From: Chloroflexota bacterium
GTDB taxonomy: Bacteria > Chloroflexota > UBA11872 > VXOZ01
Direction: 5' to 3'
NCBI GenBank assembly: GCA_963663275.1
Contig: OY760183.1
Coordinates: forward strand, 544,001 to 608,000
Length of the DNA: 64,000 bases
Part shown: positions 55,200 to 63,314 of the stretch, in pieces
Layout of the letters: each line of letters begins with the position of its first letter
Position numbering within the stretch: position 1 is the stretch's first letter
Translations under genes and position numbers: made by a program
Notes under the pieces: generated by a model
The model's database searches: none
What the model was told of the DNA's origin: nothing
Seen by the model: the letters and a program-made list of their open reading frames with translations, nothing else

Positions 55200-55676
55200 G
55201 TGCCGAAAGATAACAGCGGGGAGTTGATTGAGCGACTGGTAGAGGCGGTGAAATACCTGCACCTTCAGTTGCACACCCGTCACCTTGACGAGTGGGAGGG
55301 TCTGGACATGACCATCCCCCAGATAAAGACGTTGGTCATGTTGGGGCACACGGGCCCCCTGCGCATGGGCAGCATCGCCGTCTACCTGGGCCGGGCGCTC
55401 TCCGCCACCACCACCGTGGTGGACCGCTTGGTAGAGAAAGGGTTGGTGGATCGGATCTCGGATCCGGACGACCGGAGAGTCGTGATCTGCAGGTTGTCGG
55501 ATGAAGGGCAAGCGGCAATTGAAGTCTTCTGGCAGAATGAACGCGAACGCTTGCAGTTGCTGGCGGATATACTGACTCCGAAACAACTGCAAACCGTAGT
55601 AGAGGGGGTAGAGACGATTCGCTGGGCGGATGAGGAAGCCATGAAAGCCCTCGCTGCCATGCGGTCATCCGACTAG
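55200..55676 (+). CDS. MarR-family transcriptional regulator
   Basis: MTIPQIKTL, VVDRLVEKGLV.R..DPDDRRV. Confidence 0.92.
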   Translation: MPKDNSGELIERLVEAVKYLHLQLHTRHLDEWEGLDMTIPQIKTLVMLGHTGPLRMGSIAVYLGRALSATTTVVDRLVEKGLVDRISDPDDRRVVICRLSDEGQAAIEVFWQNERERLQLLADILTPKQLQTVVEGVETIRWADEEAMKALAAMRSSD

Positions 55677-56174: not shown

Positions 56175-56279
56175 GTGCGGAAAGATTACAGGGAAGAATT
56201 AACTGAGCGATTCGCAGAGGCGGTGGAGTATCTGAACCGTCAGGTCCACACCATTGGCATGGATGTGATGGGCGGATAG
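56175..56279 (+). pseudogene. Truncated 5' end of a second marR paralogue
   Basis: MRKDYREELTERFAEAVEYLNRQVHT aligns with MPKDNSGELIERLVEAVKYLHLQLHT of 55200..55676, then stops. Confidence 0.75.
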
Positions 56280-56312: not shown

Positions 56313-57191
56313 ATGAGGTTCGACAGCCCGCTCAGGTATCCGGGGGGAAAGGCGTCGCTCGCACCTTTCTTGGCCAGGACCATTGCGAAGAACGGCCTCT
56401 CCGGCTGCTCGTACTACGAGCCATTCGCAGGCGGCGCGGGGGCAGCGCTGCGTCTACTCCGGGAAGGCGTGGTTTCGGAACTTCATCTGAACGACTTAGA
56501 CCCTCACATCACCTCATTTTGGCGCGCCGTCCTCGATGAACCGGATCGGTTTGCCGAAGAGGTCATGTCGGTTCCAGTAAGCGTAGCGGAGTGGAAAGTG
56601 CAGCATGAGGTCTATAAGCGCGCCGATATTCATAAGCCTTTCGAACTTGGCTTCGCGACCTTCTATCTGAACCGCTGTAACCGGTCGGGAGTTATATCAG
56701 GCGCCGCGCCCATCGGCGGCTATGCCCAAGCCGGAACCTGGAAGATTGGCGAGCGGTTCTACAGAGAGCGACTGGCTGAGCGTGTTCTGGCAATCGGGAC
56801 GCGCAAGGAAAGAATCCACGTCACGAACATGGATGCTCTTGACTTCCTAACCGAGCGTTTGCCAACCGCACCTGAAAGCAAGTCCGCCTTCTGCTATCTC
56901 GACCCTCCATATCACTCGAACGGCAACCGTCTTTACATGGCATATTATCGTGACCGAGATCATGAAAATTTGGCACGCTACATTCAAGAGCAGTGGGGAT
57001 TCAAGTGGGTGATGTCGTACGACGATACGGACTTCATTAGAGATCTATACGCGGCATCGGAAATATCCATCATACCCTTGGAGTATAGTCTTCAGGAACG
57101 TCGAGAAGCCCACGAACTCCTGATTGCGCCGTCCCACGTGCTACTCGCTGACCACACCGCTCCGGCAATCCCGGAGAAGACGAGAGTCTGA
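56313..57191 (+). CDS. Dam/D12-class DNA adenine methyltransferase
   Basis: SPLRYPGGK, YEPFAGG, YLNR, YLDPPY, MSYDD. Confidence 0.92.
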   Translation: MRFDSPLRYPGGKASLAPFLARTIAKNGLSGCSYYEPFAGGAGAALRLLREGVVSELHLNDLDPHITSFWRAVLDEPDRFAEEVMSVPVSVAEWKVQHEVYKRADIHKPFELGFATFYLNRCNRSGVISGAAPIGGYAQAGTWKIGERFYRERLAERVLAIGTRKERIHVTNMDALDFLTERLPTAPESKSAFCYLDPPYHSNGNRLYMAYYRDRDHENLARYIQEQWGFKWVMSYDDTDFIRDLYAASEISIIPLEYSLQERREAHELLIAPSHVLLADHTAPAIPEKTRV

Positions 57192-57215
57192 GGACGCTCA
57201 GACAAGGATCCAACG

Positions 57216-58322
57216 ATGGCAATTCAAGACAATGTTCACAAGATTGAAGTATCTGACCTGCGCTTCGACCTCAAGAATCCGAGGCTTGCCGAATATGACC
57301 TGAGTGCGAACTCAAATGAAGTTGACGTGGTTAAGGTGCTGTGGGAAGTCATGGACGTAATGGAACTCGTAATGTCTATAGCTGCCAGTGGCTTCTTTGC
57401 CCATGAACCCATCATAGTCGCGCGGGAAGATGGGAAGAATGTAGTTATAGAGGGGAACAGACGCCTAGCGGCAGTCAAAATGCTCCTTGACCCCAAACTT
57501 GCAGAGACCTTGGGCGTGGATGTACCTCCGATCACGGAAGGAGCCAGGAAGGATCTTCGCACGCTTCCTGCCGTGCTCAGCACCCGAGAGGAAGCCTGGC
57601 AGTATCTCGGTTTCAAGCATGTAAACGGTCCCGCCAAGTGGAGCAGTTACGCCAAGTCCCAGTACATAGCTGACGTGCACCGGAACTTCAAAGTGCCCCT
57701 GGAGGACATTGCCAGGCAAATTGGCGACACGCACCGGACCGTTCAGAGGCTGTTCCGGGGCCTGATGGTCATCGAGCAAGCCGAGCGGATGAAACTGTTC
57801 GACCGCGAGAACCGCTACCATAGGCACTTCTCATTTTCCCACCTCTATACCGGTATTGGCTACGACGGAATTGCCTCCTTCATCGGCTTGCGCCCGGAAA
57901 CCGAGGAAACTGAAGAGCCGGTCCCACGCGAAAAGAAGAATGAGCTAAGGGAACTCTGTATCTGGCTCTATGGCAGCAAGAGAGAGGACAAGCGGCCCGA
58001 AATACAGTCGCAGAATCCCGACTTGCGAAAGTTGGACGCGGTCTTAGCAGATGGAGAAGCAGTCGCCGCGCTTCGCGCGGGCATAGAACTGACTCTGGCT
58101 TTTGATATGAGCAAACCTTCATCAAGTGTCTTCGCAGAGTCCCTCTATGCCGCAAAGAGAAATCTAGAGAAGGCCAGAGGATTGGTTTCAACCGGTTACG
58201 ACGGTTCGGACCGACTCTTGACGGTTGCAAATGACGTAGCGGAACTAGCGGACGATCTTCATCACGACATGGATAGAAAGTATGGACCACGGAGTAGGCG
58301 GAAGATAAAAAGGGGACGTTAA
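57216..58322 (+). CDS. ParB/sulfiredoxin-like N-terminal domain protein
   Basis: LRFDLKNPRL, EPIIV, VIEGNRRLAA; HV.G...W; HTH-like IARQIG. Confidence 0.8.
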   Translation: MAIQDNVHKIEVSDLRFDLKNPRLAEYDLSANSNEVDVVKVLWEVMDVMELVMSIAASGFFAHEPIIVAREDGKNVVIEGNRRLAAVKMLLDPKLAETLGVDVPPITEGARKDLRTLPAVLSTREEAWQYLGFKHVNGPAKWSSYAKSQYIADVHRNFKVPLEDIARQIGDTHRTVQRLFRGLMVIEQAERMKLFDRENRYHRHFSFSHLYTGIGYDGIASFIGLRPETEETEEPVPREKKNELRELCIWLYGSKREDKRPEIQSQNPDLRKLDAVLADGEAVAALRAGIELTLAFDMSKPSSSVFAESLYAAKRNLEKARGLVSTGYDGSDRLLTVANDVAELADDLHHDMDRKYGPRSRRKIKRGR

Positions 58323-59248
58323 TGTTCAAGTGGCCGAACGTGCCGTCCCCTAACGCGGCTGAGCACGAACTCGCTGATTTTGCCGAGTTGCTCTGCTGGC
58401 GGGATGGCCGCTCATCAGCGACTGCCTTGATGCACTCCCTTGCCAGACTCGCCGAGAATGACTACTCCGACGGCGTTCCCGAAGATGACATGGTAGCTAA
58501 CTATGTTGAGAACGCGTACGTAGAGATCGAACGGCGTGCAAGAGATTGCGGAGAAGGCTACCCCTTCGCCCTGGGAGAGAATGGGGATACACTGCGTACC
58601 CGCTCGCGCACAAACAATGGCAGACATGCTATCTACAAATACCTGTTACTGGCGACGCGACTAAACATGCGCACACACCGAAACCACGCTGAAATCGATG
58701 GAACGCTACTTTTCGAAGAACTTTCCGCGGAAACGTGCAAGGAGTACTTTGGCGATCGTACGGAGAGCATGGTCTTCGGCACTGCTGCGGGAGGAACCGG
58801 ATTCGAGGAGAAAGTAGAGTATCTCTGTATGAAAATAGGGGAGGGCAATGGCTACGAGCCTAAAGTCGAGAGTCGAGAGTACGCTAGAGACGGCAAGTTG
58901 GATGTCGTGGCGTGGAAACACTTTACGGATAGGCTGCCAGGAAAGCTCATAGCGTTTGGGCAGTGTAAAACGGGGACGAACTTTAGAGATGACCTTGCCG
59001 AGTTGCAACCGGAATCTTTCTGCAAGAAATGGATGCGGAATGATCCCGCTCTGTTCCCTATGCGCATGTTTTTTGTCGCCGAGGCTTTACCGCGTGGGGG
59101 TTGGTACAATTTCGCGGCCGATGCCGGTCTGCTCTTAGATCGGTGTAGAATCGTGGATTTCAGCAATCATATTTGTCGGAGCGTATCGGAGAAGGTCGAG
59201 GATTGGACGGCAGCCGCAGCCTGTTCATCCGGCTTACCGAGCCAATAG
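58322..59248 (+). CDS. Putative PD-(D/E)xK restriction endonuclease-like protein
   Basis: FEELS..DGKLDVVAW..GQCKTG Mrr-like D..QxK core; TAATG overlap with the ParB gene. Confidence 0.65.
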   Translation: MFKWPNVPSPNAAEHELADFAELLCWRDGRSSATALMHSLARLAENDYSDGVPEDDMVANYVENAYVEIERRARDCGEGYPFALGENGDTLRTRSRTNNGRHAIYKYLLLATRLNMRTHRNHAEIDGTLLFEELSAETCKEYFGDRTESMVFGTAAGGTGFEEKVEYLCMKIGEGNGYEPKVESREYARDGKLDVVAWKHFTDRLPGKLIAFGQCKTGTNFRDDLAELQPESFCKKWMRNDPALFPMRMFFVAEALPRGGWYNFAADAGLLLDRCRIVDFSNHICRSVSEKVEDWTAAAACSSGLPSQ

Positions 59249-60770: not shown

Positions 60771-61730
60771 ATGGCAGTAAACAGGGACAAGCCGGATAGA
60801 TGGAAGCGTGACATTGCCCAGTCGGTAGACATGTACAACGACTGGTTCCTACGGTTTGCGCCGGGGGCATACCGAAACACCCGCGTGCAAACGACCGCTG
60901 CGGTAGAAGCGACTCTACGAGCGACAGATAACTTGACCGGCGTCGGATTGGCGCTGCTCAAATCAAATCCCGCTGTCTTGCCAACGTTGCGGATGTCGGC
61001 GTGTCCGCCCTTAGCCGCGGACCGGCTTGTTGGGCTTGCCGGTGTGCCTCCGAACTTGGTCAAGGTCATGGAAAAGGACGGAAGACTGCCGCCGCGAATG
61101 CTCCCAGGAGACGTGGATGACGCTCTGGAGAGGATAGCAAGGGTTATTCGGAGTATGGCAGACCCAGATGTGTTCGTGTGGCTGGAGCGCGGTGATATGC
61201 CGTCGGAGCAGGAACGCTACAGGGCAGCGACGATTGTGGCGGACCGTCTGACCGGCGCGGTAGCAAATCCTGTGATCCGGAACGCGCAGGAGAAGCGCCA
61301 GCTTGGCTCCATCGCCGGATGGCTGGAGAAGCAGGGGTACATCAATTTTCCACCGGAAGATGCGGCGTATGATACTCTGTCGCCGGGTTCGTTCGCGTTT
61401 CGCCTGAATGTGCCGGCCCAGCAAGATGGAACCGACAGGCCTGTAAACATCCCAGTGGACACAGTCGTTATGCCCAAGACCGCCAAGCCAGGCGACTTGC
61501 CGTTGCTGGTCGAGGCCAAGTCGGCGGGAGATTTCACGAATGTGAACAAGCGGCGCAAGGAGGAGGCTGTGAAGGTGAGCCAGTTGCGCCGGATGTACGG
61601 GCAGCACGTGCGGTATATCCTATTCTTGTGCGGCTATTTCGACAGCGGTTACCTGGGCTACGAGGCGGCAGAAGGTATTGACTGGGTATGGGAACATCGC
61701 ATCGGCGATTTAGAAGAGTTTGGGTTGTAG
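60771..61730 (+). CDS. XamI-family type II restriction endonuclease
   Basis: VNRDKPDRWK, IRNAQEKRQ, EAKSAGDFTNVNKRRKEEA. Confidence 0.8.
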   Translation: MAVNRDKPDRWKRDIAQSVDMYNDWFLRFAPGAYRNTRVQTTAAVEATLRATDNLTGVGLALLKSNPAVLPTLRMSACPPLAADRLVGLAGVPPNLVKVMEKDGRLPPRMLPGDVDDALERIARVIRSMADPDVFVWLERGDMPSEQERYRAATIVADRLTGAVANPVIRNAQEKRQLGSIAGWLEKQGYINFPPEDAAYDTLSPGSFAFRLNVPAQQDGTDRPVNIPVDTVVMPKTAKPGDLPLLVEAKSAGDFTNVNKRRKEEAVKVSQLRRMYGQHVRYILFLCGYFDSGYLGYEAAEGIDWVWEHRIGDLEEFGL

Positions 61731-63314
61731 ATGGCAAGTACCATGAACGAACTGGAAGAGCGCCGGCTTGCCGTTCAGATGAAACTGGACGCCGCCAAGG
61801 ATCAGGCGGAACGGAACCGTTTGGGCCAGTTTGCGACGCCAACGGGACTCGCCGTCGAAGTGCTCCGGTACGCCAGTGAACTACTGGATGCAACTGCGCA
61901 AATCCGGTTCTTGGATCCAGCCATCGGCACCGGGTCGTTCTATTCCGCGCTGCGAGCAGTCTTCCCCGAAGAGCGCCTGGCACATGCCGTTGGCTATGAG
62001 ATCGACCCGCATTACGGCTTGGCAGCGGCAAAGCTCTGGAGCAAGGCGAGCCTGGACGTTCGCCTGGACGACTTTACCCGGACTGAGCCACCGGCGGCCT
62101 CAGAGAGATTCAACCTGCTGATCTGTAACCCCCCTTACGTGCGGCATCATCACATACCGCATGGCGACAAGAAACGCCTCAAGGAACGGGCATGGAAGGC
62201 CTGCGGCGTTGAAATCGATGGGCTTGCCGGCTTGTACTGCTACTTTCTTTGCCTGAGTCATGACTGGCTGGCGCAGGGCGGACTGGCCGGGTGGCTGATA
62301 CCCAGCGAATTCATGGACGTCAATTATGGCGCATCGGTTAAGCGCTACTTGCTCGAAAAGGTTACGCTGACGCGCATCCATCGCTTTGATCCGCACGAGG
62401 CGCAGTTTGGTGACGCTCTGGTCTCATCGTCCGTCGTCTGGTTTAGGAAGGAATGTCCGCCCCGCGACCACGAGGTGCGTATGACGTACGGCGGCTCGTT
62501 GCTGAGTCCGAAATTGGAGCGACTGGCGCCTGTCGCGATGTTGGGCCGCGACCGCAAGTGGATGAAGTACCCGCTGAATGATTTCCGCCAAGACTCGGGC
62601 GCTCCGGCTCTGTCCGACTTCTTCGAGATCAAGCGCGGATTGGCAACGGGCAGCAACCCGTACTTCATCCTGCCGGTCGAAGAAATCGAAGACCGGGGAC
62701 TGCCTTTCGAGGAGTTTCGACCGATACTACCCAGCCCCCGGTACGTGCCGGAAGACGCGGTTGAGTCGGATGAGATTGGCAACCCGGTGTTAGAACGACG
62801 ACTATTCCTCTTGGACTGCCGCTTGGCGGAAGACGAGATCGAGAAGCGCTATCCGGCGCTGATGGCGTACCTCGAGGAAGGAAAAGCGCACGGTGTGGCT
62901 GATCGGTACCTGTGCCGGCATAGAAAGGTCTGGTACATGCAAGAGGACAGACCGGAGGCTCCATTCCTCTGCACCTACATGGGCCGCAACGACAGCAAAA
63001 GGGGACGGCCATTCCGTTTCATCTTGAATCACTCGCGGGCGACGGCCTCTAATGTCTATCTGATGCTATACCCGAAAGAACCGCTCAATCGGTTGCTGCA
63101 AAGAAAACCTGCGTTCAAACAACGTGTCTGGGAGATTCTGAACGAGATACGCCCGCAGGCGATGCTCGGCGAGGGCAGAGTGTATGGCGGCGGGCTGCAC
63201 AAGCTGGAGCCCAAAGAACTGGGAAACGTACCGGCGGTTGCGCTTGCGGAGTTTCTGCGGGAGAAGGGACTGCAACAGAAACAGGAACAGTTGGAATTGT
63301 TCCAGCTAGCCTGA
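61731..63314 (+). CDS. Gamma-class N6-adenine DNA methyltransferase, cognate to the XamI-like enzyme
   Basis: GQFATP, LDPAIGTG, NPPY, YGGGLHKLEP; starts immediately after the REase stop. Confidence 0.9.
   Translation: MASTMNELEERRLAVQMKLDAAKDQAERNRLGQFATPTGLAVEVLRYASELLDATAQIRFLDPAIGTGSFYSALRAVFPEERLAHAVGYEIDPHYGLAAAKLWSKASLDVRLDDFTRTEPPAASERFNLLICNPPYVRHHHIPHGDKKRLKERAWKACGVEIDGLAGLYCYFLCLSHDWLAQGGLAGWLIPSEFMDVNYGASVKRYLLEKVTLTRIHRFDPHEAQFGDALVSSSVVWFRKECPPRDHEVRMTYGGSLLSPKLERLAPVAMLGRDRKWMKYPLNDFRQDSGAPALSDFFEIKRGLATGSNPYFILPVEEIEDRGLPFEEFRPILPSPRYVPEDAVESDEIGNPVLERRLFLLDCRLAEDEIEKRYPALMAYLEEGKAHGVADRYLCRHRKVWYMQEDRPEAPFLCTYMGRNDSKRGRPFRFILNHSRATASNVYLMLYPKEPLNRLLQRKPAFKQRVWEILNEIRPQAMLGEGRVYGGGLHKLEPKELGNVPAVALAEFLREKGLQQKQEQLELFQLA

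Follow-up and report, generated by a model that had tools for sequence, protein, structure and literature searches.

What is the function of a compact gene cassette that joins an adenine methylase to a ParB-like protein and to a third protein without any match in Pfam, NCBIfam or PADLOC? The question is raised by three co-oriented genes (genes 1, 2 and 3) in a 64,000-nucleotide stretch of DNA from a Chloroflexota bacterium (assembly GCA_963663275.1, contig OY760183.1, positions 544,001-608,000; hereafter the window, to whose positions the coordinates refer). The cassette is shorter than 3 kb and holds three clear catalytic motifs. An initial annotation had read it as a restriction-modification (R-M) variant, composed of a Dam/D12 methyltransferase (DPPY), a ParB/Srx-fold protein (EGNRR) and a protein with an Mrr-like D..QxK core; the motifs and domains described below support these assignments, as well as the R-M-like defence reading. 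The feature is real, intact and conserved, and a role in defence is very probable. Judging from its components, the cassette is most likely a three-part R-M-like relative of the PD-lambda-5 system, and not a member of it. That it works as an R-M-like anti-phage or anti-plasmid system, with a ParB switch that gives the nuclease licence to act, is a proposal to which we give about an even chance (roughly 0.5).

A conserved ParB-nuclease pair with an exchangeable methylase

The organization of related loci was analyzed in genomes, where a search with the nuclease gave 197 loci, of which the best 80 were inspected, and in viral sequences, where the best 80 of 139 loci found with ParB were used. 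In the genomes, 79 of the 80 nuclease genes have an adjacent ParB gene, and 65 loci also contain a tblastn match to gene 1; in the viral set, the nuclease gene follows ParB in 76 of 80 loci, and the other four end right after ParB. Moreover, the stop and start codons of the ParB and nuclease genes overlap by one base in 55 of 78 loci. As ParB lies beside the nuclease so consistently and the overlap recurs, the arrangement is not due to chance, and pairwise identities of the two proteins are correlated (Spearman 0.76). The conserved unit is the ParB-nuclease pair, while the methylase is exchangeable. Co-occurrence of the triplet, the conservation of which the initial annotation had proposed to test, is conserved, but only the pair is fixed, and the methylase is sometimes unlinked.

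Regarding its distribution, the nuclease was found in 7, 10 and 11 of 401 genomes in three phyla (approximately 1.5-2.5%, the genome studied here being counted). The pair occurs in many prophages and at prophage cargo sites, as in a Vibrio locus (L122) where a phage integrase and a CI repressor flank the cassette, and it also neighbours Type I R-M, Z1/DUF4420 and Dnd genes, with gene order and orientation varying between loci.

To classify the methylases, small profiles were built from the loci and examples were checked against Pfam; D12A designates the clade of gene 1, of the PD-lambda-5B type. Among 161 distinct pairs other than this locus, 138 have a methylase within 2.5 kb (113 of the 131 with full flanks), namely 80 D12A, 16 D12B, 2 D12B plus N4/N6, 7 N4/N6 and 33 C5. 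When methylase class was followed along a FastTree tree of ParB, at least 14 changes were counted for the 138 labelled rows, and seven D12A/D12B switches for 62 close rows; short branches may inflate both counts. In the closest cross-class comparison, the ParB proteins are 73% and the nucleases 66% identical, whereas the methylase clades are only approximately 28% identical. Some of the pairs lacking a neighbouring methylase have a C5 methylase and Z1 slightly further off (L081, L124) or adjacent DndC-D-E genes (L108).

Ten of 14 close methylase-free loci were tested for a methylase elsewhere in the genome, and D12B was present in nine of the ten. Nuclease-negative controls, which are unmatched for lineage and habitat and include kin that are not independent, carried D12B in 5 of 20 Chloroflexota relatives and in 0 of 56 further genomes. 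D12A-level matches were found in none of the 20 nuclease-negative relatives, and all seven nuclease-positive genomes have D12A or D12B. Among 61 relatives of one genome (G003), all four that bear such a methylase fall among the five with the nuclease, and one of these four has a C5 methylase of its own next to the pair. These distributions are suggestive of a methylase supplied in trans, without amounting to proof, as the signal is confounded.

Predicted functions of the three proteins

The 123 homologues of gene 3 that were examined have no family in common, and neither Pfam Mrr nor PF18737 matches any of them. The nuclease thus escapes Pfam, NCBIfam and PADLOC even though its family is widespread (1,169 proteins, and 2,114 clusters at 50% identity, with the nuclease profile), and for this reason its loci are read as orphan methylases or as partial PD-lambda-5. 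In an AlphaFold2 (AF2) model with a predicted local distance difference test (pLDDT) score of 94, the N-terminal domain is helical and winged-helix-like, residues 11-95 matching the winged helix-turn-helix protein F-112 (VIA Z 4.3). The best VIA matches of the C-terminal domain are nearly all PD-(D/E)xK nucleases: MspJI (Z 6.9, root-mean-square deviation (rmsd) 4.5, 151 residues aligned), FokI (6.4), N.BspD6I (6.3), AspBHI (6.0) and LlaBIII (5.5). The modelled protein is accordingly described here as a predicted winged helix joined to a putative Mrr/MspJI-like PD-(D/E)xK nuclease, the fold that the initial annotation had proposed.

Among 165 aligned rows, D190 is found in 162, D194 in 164 and Q214 in 163, and K216 in 85. 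When positions 216 and 224 were considered together in 163 homologues, 81 rows had lysine at 216 only, 79 at 224 only, two at both and none at neither, one row being gapped; in a separate set of 123 rows, K224 is present in all ten that carry K216A. We read this as a relocation of the probable catalytic lysine between positions 216 and 224. The QxK core noted previously is hence present in this protein, but its lysine is not invariant, being replaced by lysine 224 in about half of the family.

Further searches with gene 3 gave little: longer fused forms were absent among 8,000 candidates, which is weak evidence, the nuclease profile, run against PDB sequences, matched nothing but antibodies by chance, and a genome scan with a single protein as query had no match. 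A plasmid collection gave no match to two nuclease queries, and ParB queries reached five records there. In the ESM Atlas, the clusters at 0.98 had no name, and the leads HaeII and BsoBI stayed under 0.9.

Regarding gene 2, the AF2 model (61-row alignment, pLDDT 89) matches Noc, ParB and KorB (Foldseek E 6e-7 to 2e-6). The N-terminal domain of KorB fits residues 6-135 (VIA Z 8.9, rmsd 3.0, 92 aligned) and its DNA-binding domain fits residues 127-279 (Z 5.3, rmsd 3.6, 111 aligned). N21, R23, E64, E79-R83, H135, W142 and G170 are invariant in all 165 ParB rows, two of which are copies of this locus, and the host's own ParB, encoded elsewhere, aligns to gene 2 with an hhalign probability of 93.9. 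Gene 2 shares with the cytidine triphosphate (CTP)-dependent clamps ParB, KorB and Noc the succession of nucleoside triphosphatase (NTPase), helix-turn-helix (HTH) and C-terminal domains, together with the GxxR of Box II. It differs from them in lacking a ParA-binding motif and in its Box III region, and no parA was seen adjoining the ParB-nuclease pair in the loci inspected. Residues near the HTH vary between family members, which would fit a ParB acting as the site reader.

The same ParB region is found with other partners. In 401 Pseudomonadota genomes, the ParB profile pointed to 27 places: six are of the gene 2 type with the nuclease next to them; seven encode proteins of 438-511 amino acids (aa) followed by a D12 methylase, as in PD-lambda-5, and four of the five scanned with PADLOC gave full-length matches; and six encode proteins of approximately 710-730 aa, the one tested being PDC-M38A, a ParB fused to an ABC ATPase. 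One ParB module thus serves several effectors.

Gene 1 is a D12-class N6-adenine DNA methyltransferase (Pfam PF02086, E 3.6e-18) with intact catalytic motifs, FAGG and DPPY (residues 197-200; 56901-56912). Its identity to methylases adjoining PD-lambda-5A-type genes is 41-46% over the available parts, and that to distant methylases of its own trio type is 37-41%, which means that the latter are no closer to it than those of PD-lambda-5. The genome also has a D12B-level methylase far from the cassette (L252, G000:C1:3528165-3528956).

Relationship to PD-lambda-5 and other known systems

The closest named relative is PD-lambda-5, listed in the available text of PMC9519451 (Vassallo et al. 2022) as 'ParB/HEPN, methyltransferase', a system of two genes that gave broad protection in Escherichia coli, in a cloning host lacking mrr, and for which no mechanism is given in that text. 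The initial annotation had found no named system to match the cassette, a claim that has to be narrowed. Gene 1 has PD-Lambda-5_B as its best PADLOC model (E 5.2e-98, residues 2-281) and belongs to the same methylase clade, and gene 2 matches the N-terminal ParB part of PD-Lambda-5_A (E 8.9e-20, residues 10-169); these are results of scanning the proteins with the PADLOC library of hidden Markov models, and it is possible that the system rules of PADLOC would give a partial PD-Lambda-5 call on genes 1 and 2. In hhalign comparisons with 11 longer PD-lambda-5A-like proteins, homology extends over the ParB, HTH and middle regions (probability 99.9, residues 10-277), with nothing beyond. Moreover, both systems occur in prophages or mobile islands. 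However, the cassette has three genes instead of two; the A proteins have approximately 430-510 aa and a HEPN-like C-terminus, whereas gene 2 has 368 aa and ends in a hairpin; the effector is a separate PD-(D/E)xK protein, gene 3 aligning to PD-lambda-5A with a probability of only 0.1; and the methylase class is exchangeable in the present cassette. Lacking both the HEPN fusion and the two-gene layout, the cassette is not PD-lambda-5 proper. The HEPN assignment of PD-lambda-5A is itself weak (HHpred probabilities 35.6 and 8.0). Ronin is a different system from PD-lambda-5 (10.1101/2023.04.06.535777).

Operons combining ParB and a DNA methylase with a member of a HEPN family (MAE_28990) are described in Anantharaman et al. 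2013 (PMC3710099). There, the third gene encodes a HEPN RNase, whereas here neither gene 3 nor its 123 homologues match PF18737 and gene 3 models with a PD-(D/E)xK DNase fold; a search of the host genome with PF18737 gave one match, below the cut-off. The PADLOC candidate PDC-M38 shares the ParB region (gene 2 residues 47-299, E 2.6e-18), but in PDC-M38A this is fused to an AAA_21 ABC ATPase (approximately 730 aa) and followed by a gene of approximately 93 aa, not by this nuclease. The previously suggested likeness to GmrSD and SspE had to be abandoned. Those systems and Menshen NsnA do have a ParB/Srx fold in a defence setting beside a nuclease, but gene 2 is a ParB/KorB-like protein with an HTH and not a DUF262 protein: neither it nor gene 3 has a Pfam match at E 0.1, PF03235 (DUF262) included, the cassette contains neither an HNH domain nor a subunit of the ABC ATPase type, and the list of 25 PADLOC families for gene 2 includes no GmrSD, Ssp or Menshen model. 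Gene 3 resembles Mrr and MspJI in its putative D...QxK-type catalytic domain, but its loci differ in the ParB partner and the usually adjacent methylase. An adjacent methylase with intact catalytic motifs is the arrangement of Type II R-M systems, and the 138 neighbouring methylases, presumably cognate, set the pairs apart from Type IV systems, which have none. The trio was not found in the literature covered by our search, outside which lie most subscription journals and survey supplements, nor is it described in the accessible parts of PMC12839542, PMC10853773, 10.64898/2026.10.19.760177, PMC12704722, PMC12065111 and 10.1101/2023.04.06.535777.

Proposed mechanism and alternative explanations

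According to the proposal that we favour, gene 1 would mark the host chromosome as self by methylating an adenine wherever a short target site occurs in it. Gene 2 would dimerize through its C-terminal hairpin and bind, by means of its HTH, unmethylated sites on incoming DNA; upon binding a nucleotide (CTP, or adenosine or guanosine triphosphate, ATP or GTP), it would close or switch in the manner of ParB/KorB clamps. The switched ParB would then recruit or license gene 3, whose winged helix would hold the DNA while its PD-(D/E)xK centre cuts, so that ParB and nuclease would jointly act as the restriction enzyme and the nuclease would be nucleotide-gated by ParB. Any methylase covering the site could protect the host, from which methylase swapping and supply from elsewhere in the genome would follow. 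We also put forward, more tentatively, that these loci form an R-M class in which a nucleotide-gated ParB/KorB-type clamp replaces the ATP motor of Types I and III, loads at unmethylated sites, slides and delivers a separate nuclease, the module being re-paired with N6-methyladenine (m6A), N4/N6, 5-methylcytosine (m5C) and possibly phosphorothioate writers, and possibly relying on an unlinked methylase. If the favoured proposal holds, nucleotide switches of the ParB type would drive restriction in addition to their known roles in segregation and gene silencing, and the mechanism of PD-lambda-5, which is unexplained, would become easier to approach.

Several observations weigh against this proposal. 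The fold scores of gene 3 are middling, with 6.9 as the best Z, and Foldseek gave nothing at E <= 0.001 (E 0.013 in the Mrr/MspJI test). The two lysine states largely track clades, and therefore reflect few independent events. Members of the gene 2 family do not conserve the canonical Box III of ParB, which reads ENLQR in the ParB of the host itself, so that their closing as a clamp cannot be taken for granted; in addition, whether gene 2 uses CTP, ATP or GTP is not predictable from its sequence (PMC12704722). No methylase lies within 2.5 kb of 23 of the 161 pairs (five of them on short contigs), or of 18 of the 131 with full flanks, and one genome with a methylase-free pair (G1210) has no D12A or D12B at all. 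The D12B found elsewhere usually lies beside a NotI-family gene, forming an R-M pair of its own (7/9), and the same class is present in the 5 of 20 nuclease-negative relatives mentioned above. It is likewise present in a genome (G1222) whose pair adjoins its own C5 methylase, and shared habitat can thus produce the overlap.

An unlikely alternative is that ParB and nuclease act as a guard leading to abortive infection (Abi), monitoring the methylase, the methylation state or the nucleotide pool, and destroying the DNA of the host once methylation is blocked by a phage, in the way that PrrC or Ronin stand guard over R-M systems. The pair does stand beside complete R-M systems in places (D12B with a NotI-family gene in L036 and L044; C5 methylase, Z1 and DUF4420; DndC-D-E in L108), but in most loci, including the present one, the trio stands alone, and a further restriction enzyme that it could guard is absent. 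Fusions of this ParB module are known with a HEPN-like tail, in PD-lambda-5A, and with an AbiEii-type ABC ATPase, in PDC-M38A, and Vassallo et al. (PMC9519451) call PD-lambda-5 a compact RM+Abi system; however, the HEPN call for PD-lambda-5A is weak, given its low HHpred values. Less probable is that genes 1 and 3 make up a conventional Type II system, gene 3 being its restriction enzyme, with gene 2 as a KorB/DndB-like regulator timing expression or damping the nuclease. KorB, a nucleotide-dependent repressor, is indeed the closest structural relative of gene 2, and DndB is proposed as a negative regulator of Dnd systems (PMC12839542). Against this reading, 66%-identical nucleases are accompanied by methylase clades that share only approximately 28% identity, a ParB gene adjoins all but one of the 80 nuclease genes and overlaps the start codon in 55 of 78, and relatives of this ParB are fused straight to effector-like domains.

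An explanation that we consider slightly more improbable is a Type IV activity, in which ParB and nuclease would cut foreign modified DNA like Mrr, MspJI or GmrSD and the methylase would be a passenger or shield overlapping host sites. The top structural matches, MspJI and AspBHI, are modification-dependent enzymes, methylase-free pairs exist (18/131), and the layout and size of gene 3 resemble those of Mrr, which consists of a winged helix and a catalytic domain within approximately 300 aa. However, the structural match covers the catalytic domain only, with no SRA reader domain aligned, none of the 123 homologues matches Pfam Mrr, and 138 of 161 pairs have a neighbouring methylase gene, in many cases an overlapping one, with no D12A in the 20 controls without the nuclease. 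Finally, it is highly improbable that the cassette has no part in defence and serves instead for selfish addiction, or for the maintenance or regulation of a prophage. Its patchy presence in the genus, low GC content and insertion at marR would suit any selfish cassette, but two of its components are held in common with a validated defence system, no parA lies beside the pair in the loci inspected, and addiction and defence are compatible in R-M systems.

Genomic context and insertion site

The coordinates of the cassette and its surroundings are collected in Table 1. As initially annotated, genes 1 and 2 are separated by 24 bp, genes 2 and 3 overlap by TAATG (58320-58324) and the GC content is low, 54.2% against 63.5% in the window, which places the cassette in the lowest 1% of equal-sized stretches. 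Its GC content at third codon positions is 0.60-0.64, compared with 0.84-0.87 in two neighbouring host genes (nadA and an amidohydrolase gene). In all five nuclease-negative genomes of the same genus, the distance from marR to the region upstream of nadA is 0.4-0.6 kb, versus 3.7 kb here; a remnant of marR, which marks the point of insertion, lies directly upstream of the methylase gene, in the same frame as its start; and in three relatives the trio sits on the opposite side of marR. These features show the cassette to be an insertion whose site varies; 4 of 11 sampled relatives of the genus have it, and it was acquired horizontally, from a foreign source. No flanking repeats, promoter or terminator signals above chance were found around it. 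Since the remnant resembles the relatives' marR and shares its reading frame with the start of the methylase gene, the old marR promoter may drive the cassette.

Table 1. Positions of the cassette, its predicted domains and neighbouring features.
Feature	Position in the window	Strand	Residues	Remarks
Gene 1, methylase	56313-57191	+	292 aa	Alternative GTG start at 56286
Gene 2, ParB/KorB-like protein	57216-58322	+	368 aa	
Gene 2, ParB/Srx NTPase domain			~6-135	Motifs NPR, E64, EGNRR (79-83), H135
Gene 2, middle domain with HTH			~127-279	
Gene 2, C-terminal helical hairpin			301-358	
Gene 3, predicted nuclease	58322-59248	+	308 aa	
Gene 3, putative active site			E132, D190, D194, Q214, K216	D190xxxD194...Q214-C-K216 present
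marR remnant	56175-56279	+		Decayed 5' end, TAG at its end; 72-78% DNA identity to the 5' end of relatives' nadA-linked marR
Intact marR	55200-55676			
XamI-family gene, then Eco57I-type methylase gene	60771-63314			58.5% GC

Between the intact marR of the window and the nadA-linked marR of relatives, identity is only 59-64%, the remnant being closer to the latter, and nadA itself is 90-93% identical. Just beyond nadA, a gene for a XamI-family restriction enzyme is followed by one for an Eco57I-type methylase; this pair is matched in one of five relatives of the genus, at a different position. The nadA region looks like a defence hotspot.

Variant loci

Additional arrangements were observed among the loci collected. 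In a group of prophage contigs (L083-L090), the trio occupies one cargo site after a conserved pair of genes for proteins of 207 and 535-550 aa, terminase-like by reading and without a Pfam match, and the methylase is placed either before or after the ParB-nuclease pair. The pair is attached to clusters of C5 methylase, Z1 and DUF4420 in L112:4824-12953, with a HATPase gene, and in L124:1-8042, with a DUF262 gene. L081:1176-9579, deposited as phage, contains C5 methylase, Z1 and the ParB-nuclease pair, as well as a second, divergent ParB-nuclease pair on the opposite strand. A D12B methylase paired with a NotI-family nuclease, apparently a Type II R-M system, is recurrent (L235-L243, L246, L036, L044), and in L036 and L044 it directly precedes the ParB-nuclease pair. 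In L108:47-7004, genes for DndC, DndD and DndE/ATPase stand directly before the pair, with no methylase, possibly a phosphorothioate-linked version.

A sister architecture was found in L132:1495-3448, where a more distant ParB of 358 aa, similar to the N-terminus of PDC-M38A, is followed by a different protein of 302 aa with an Mrr-like D...QxK motif, which does not align with the gene 3 profile (probability 0.1). Lastly, in L105:3972-8407 the trio is convergent with a full-length PD-lambda-5A gene, which brings both systems side by side, and one methylase may be shared by the two.

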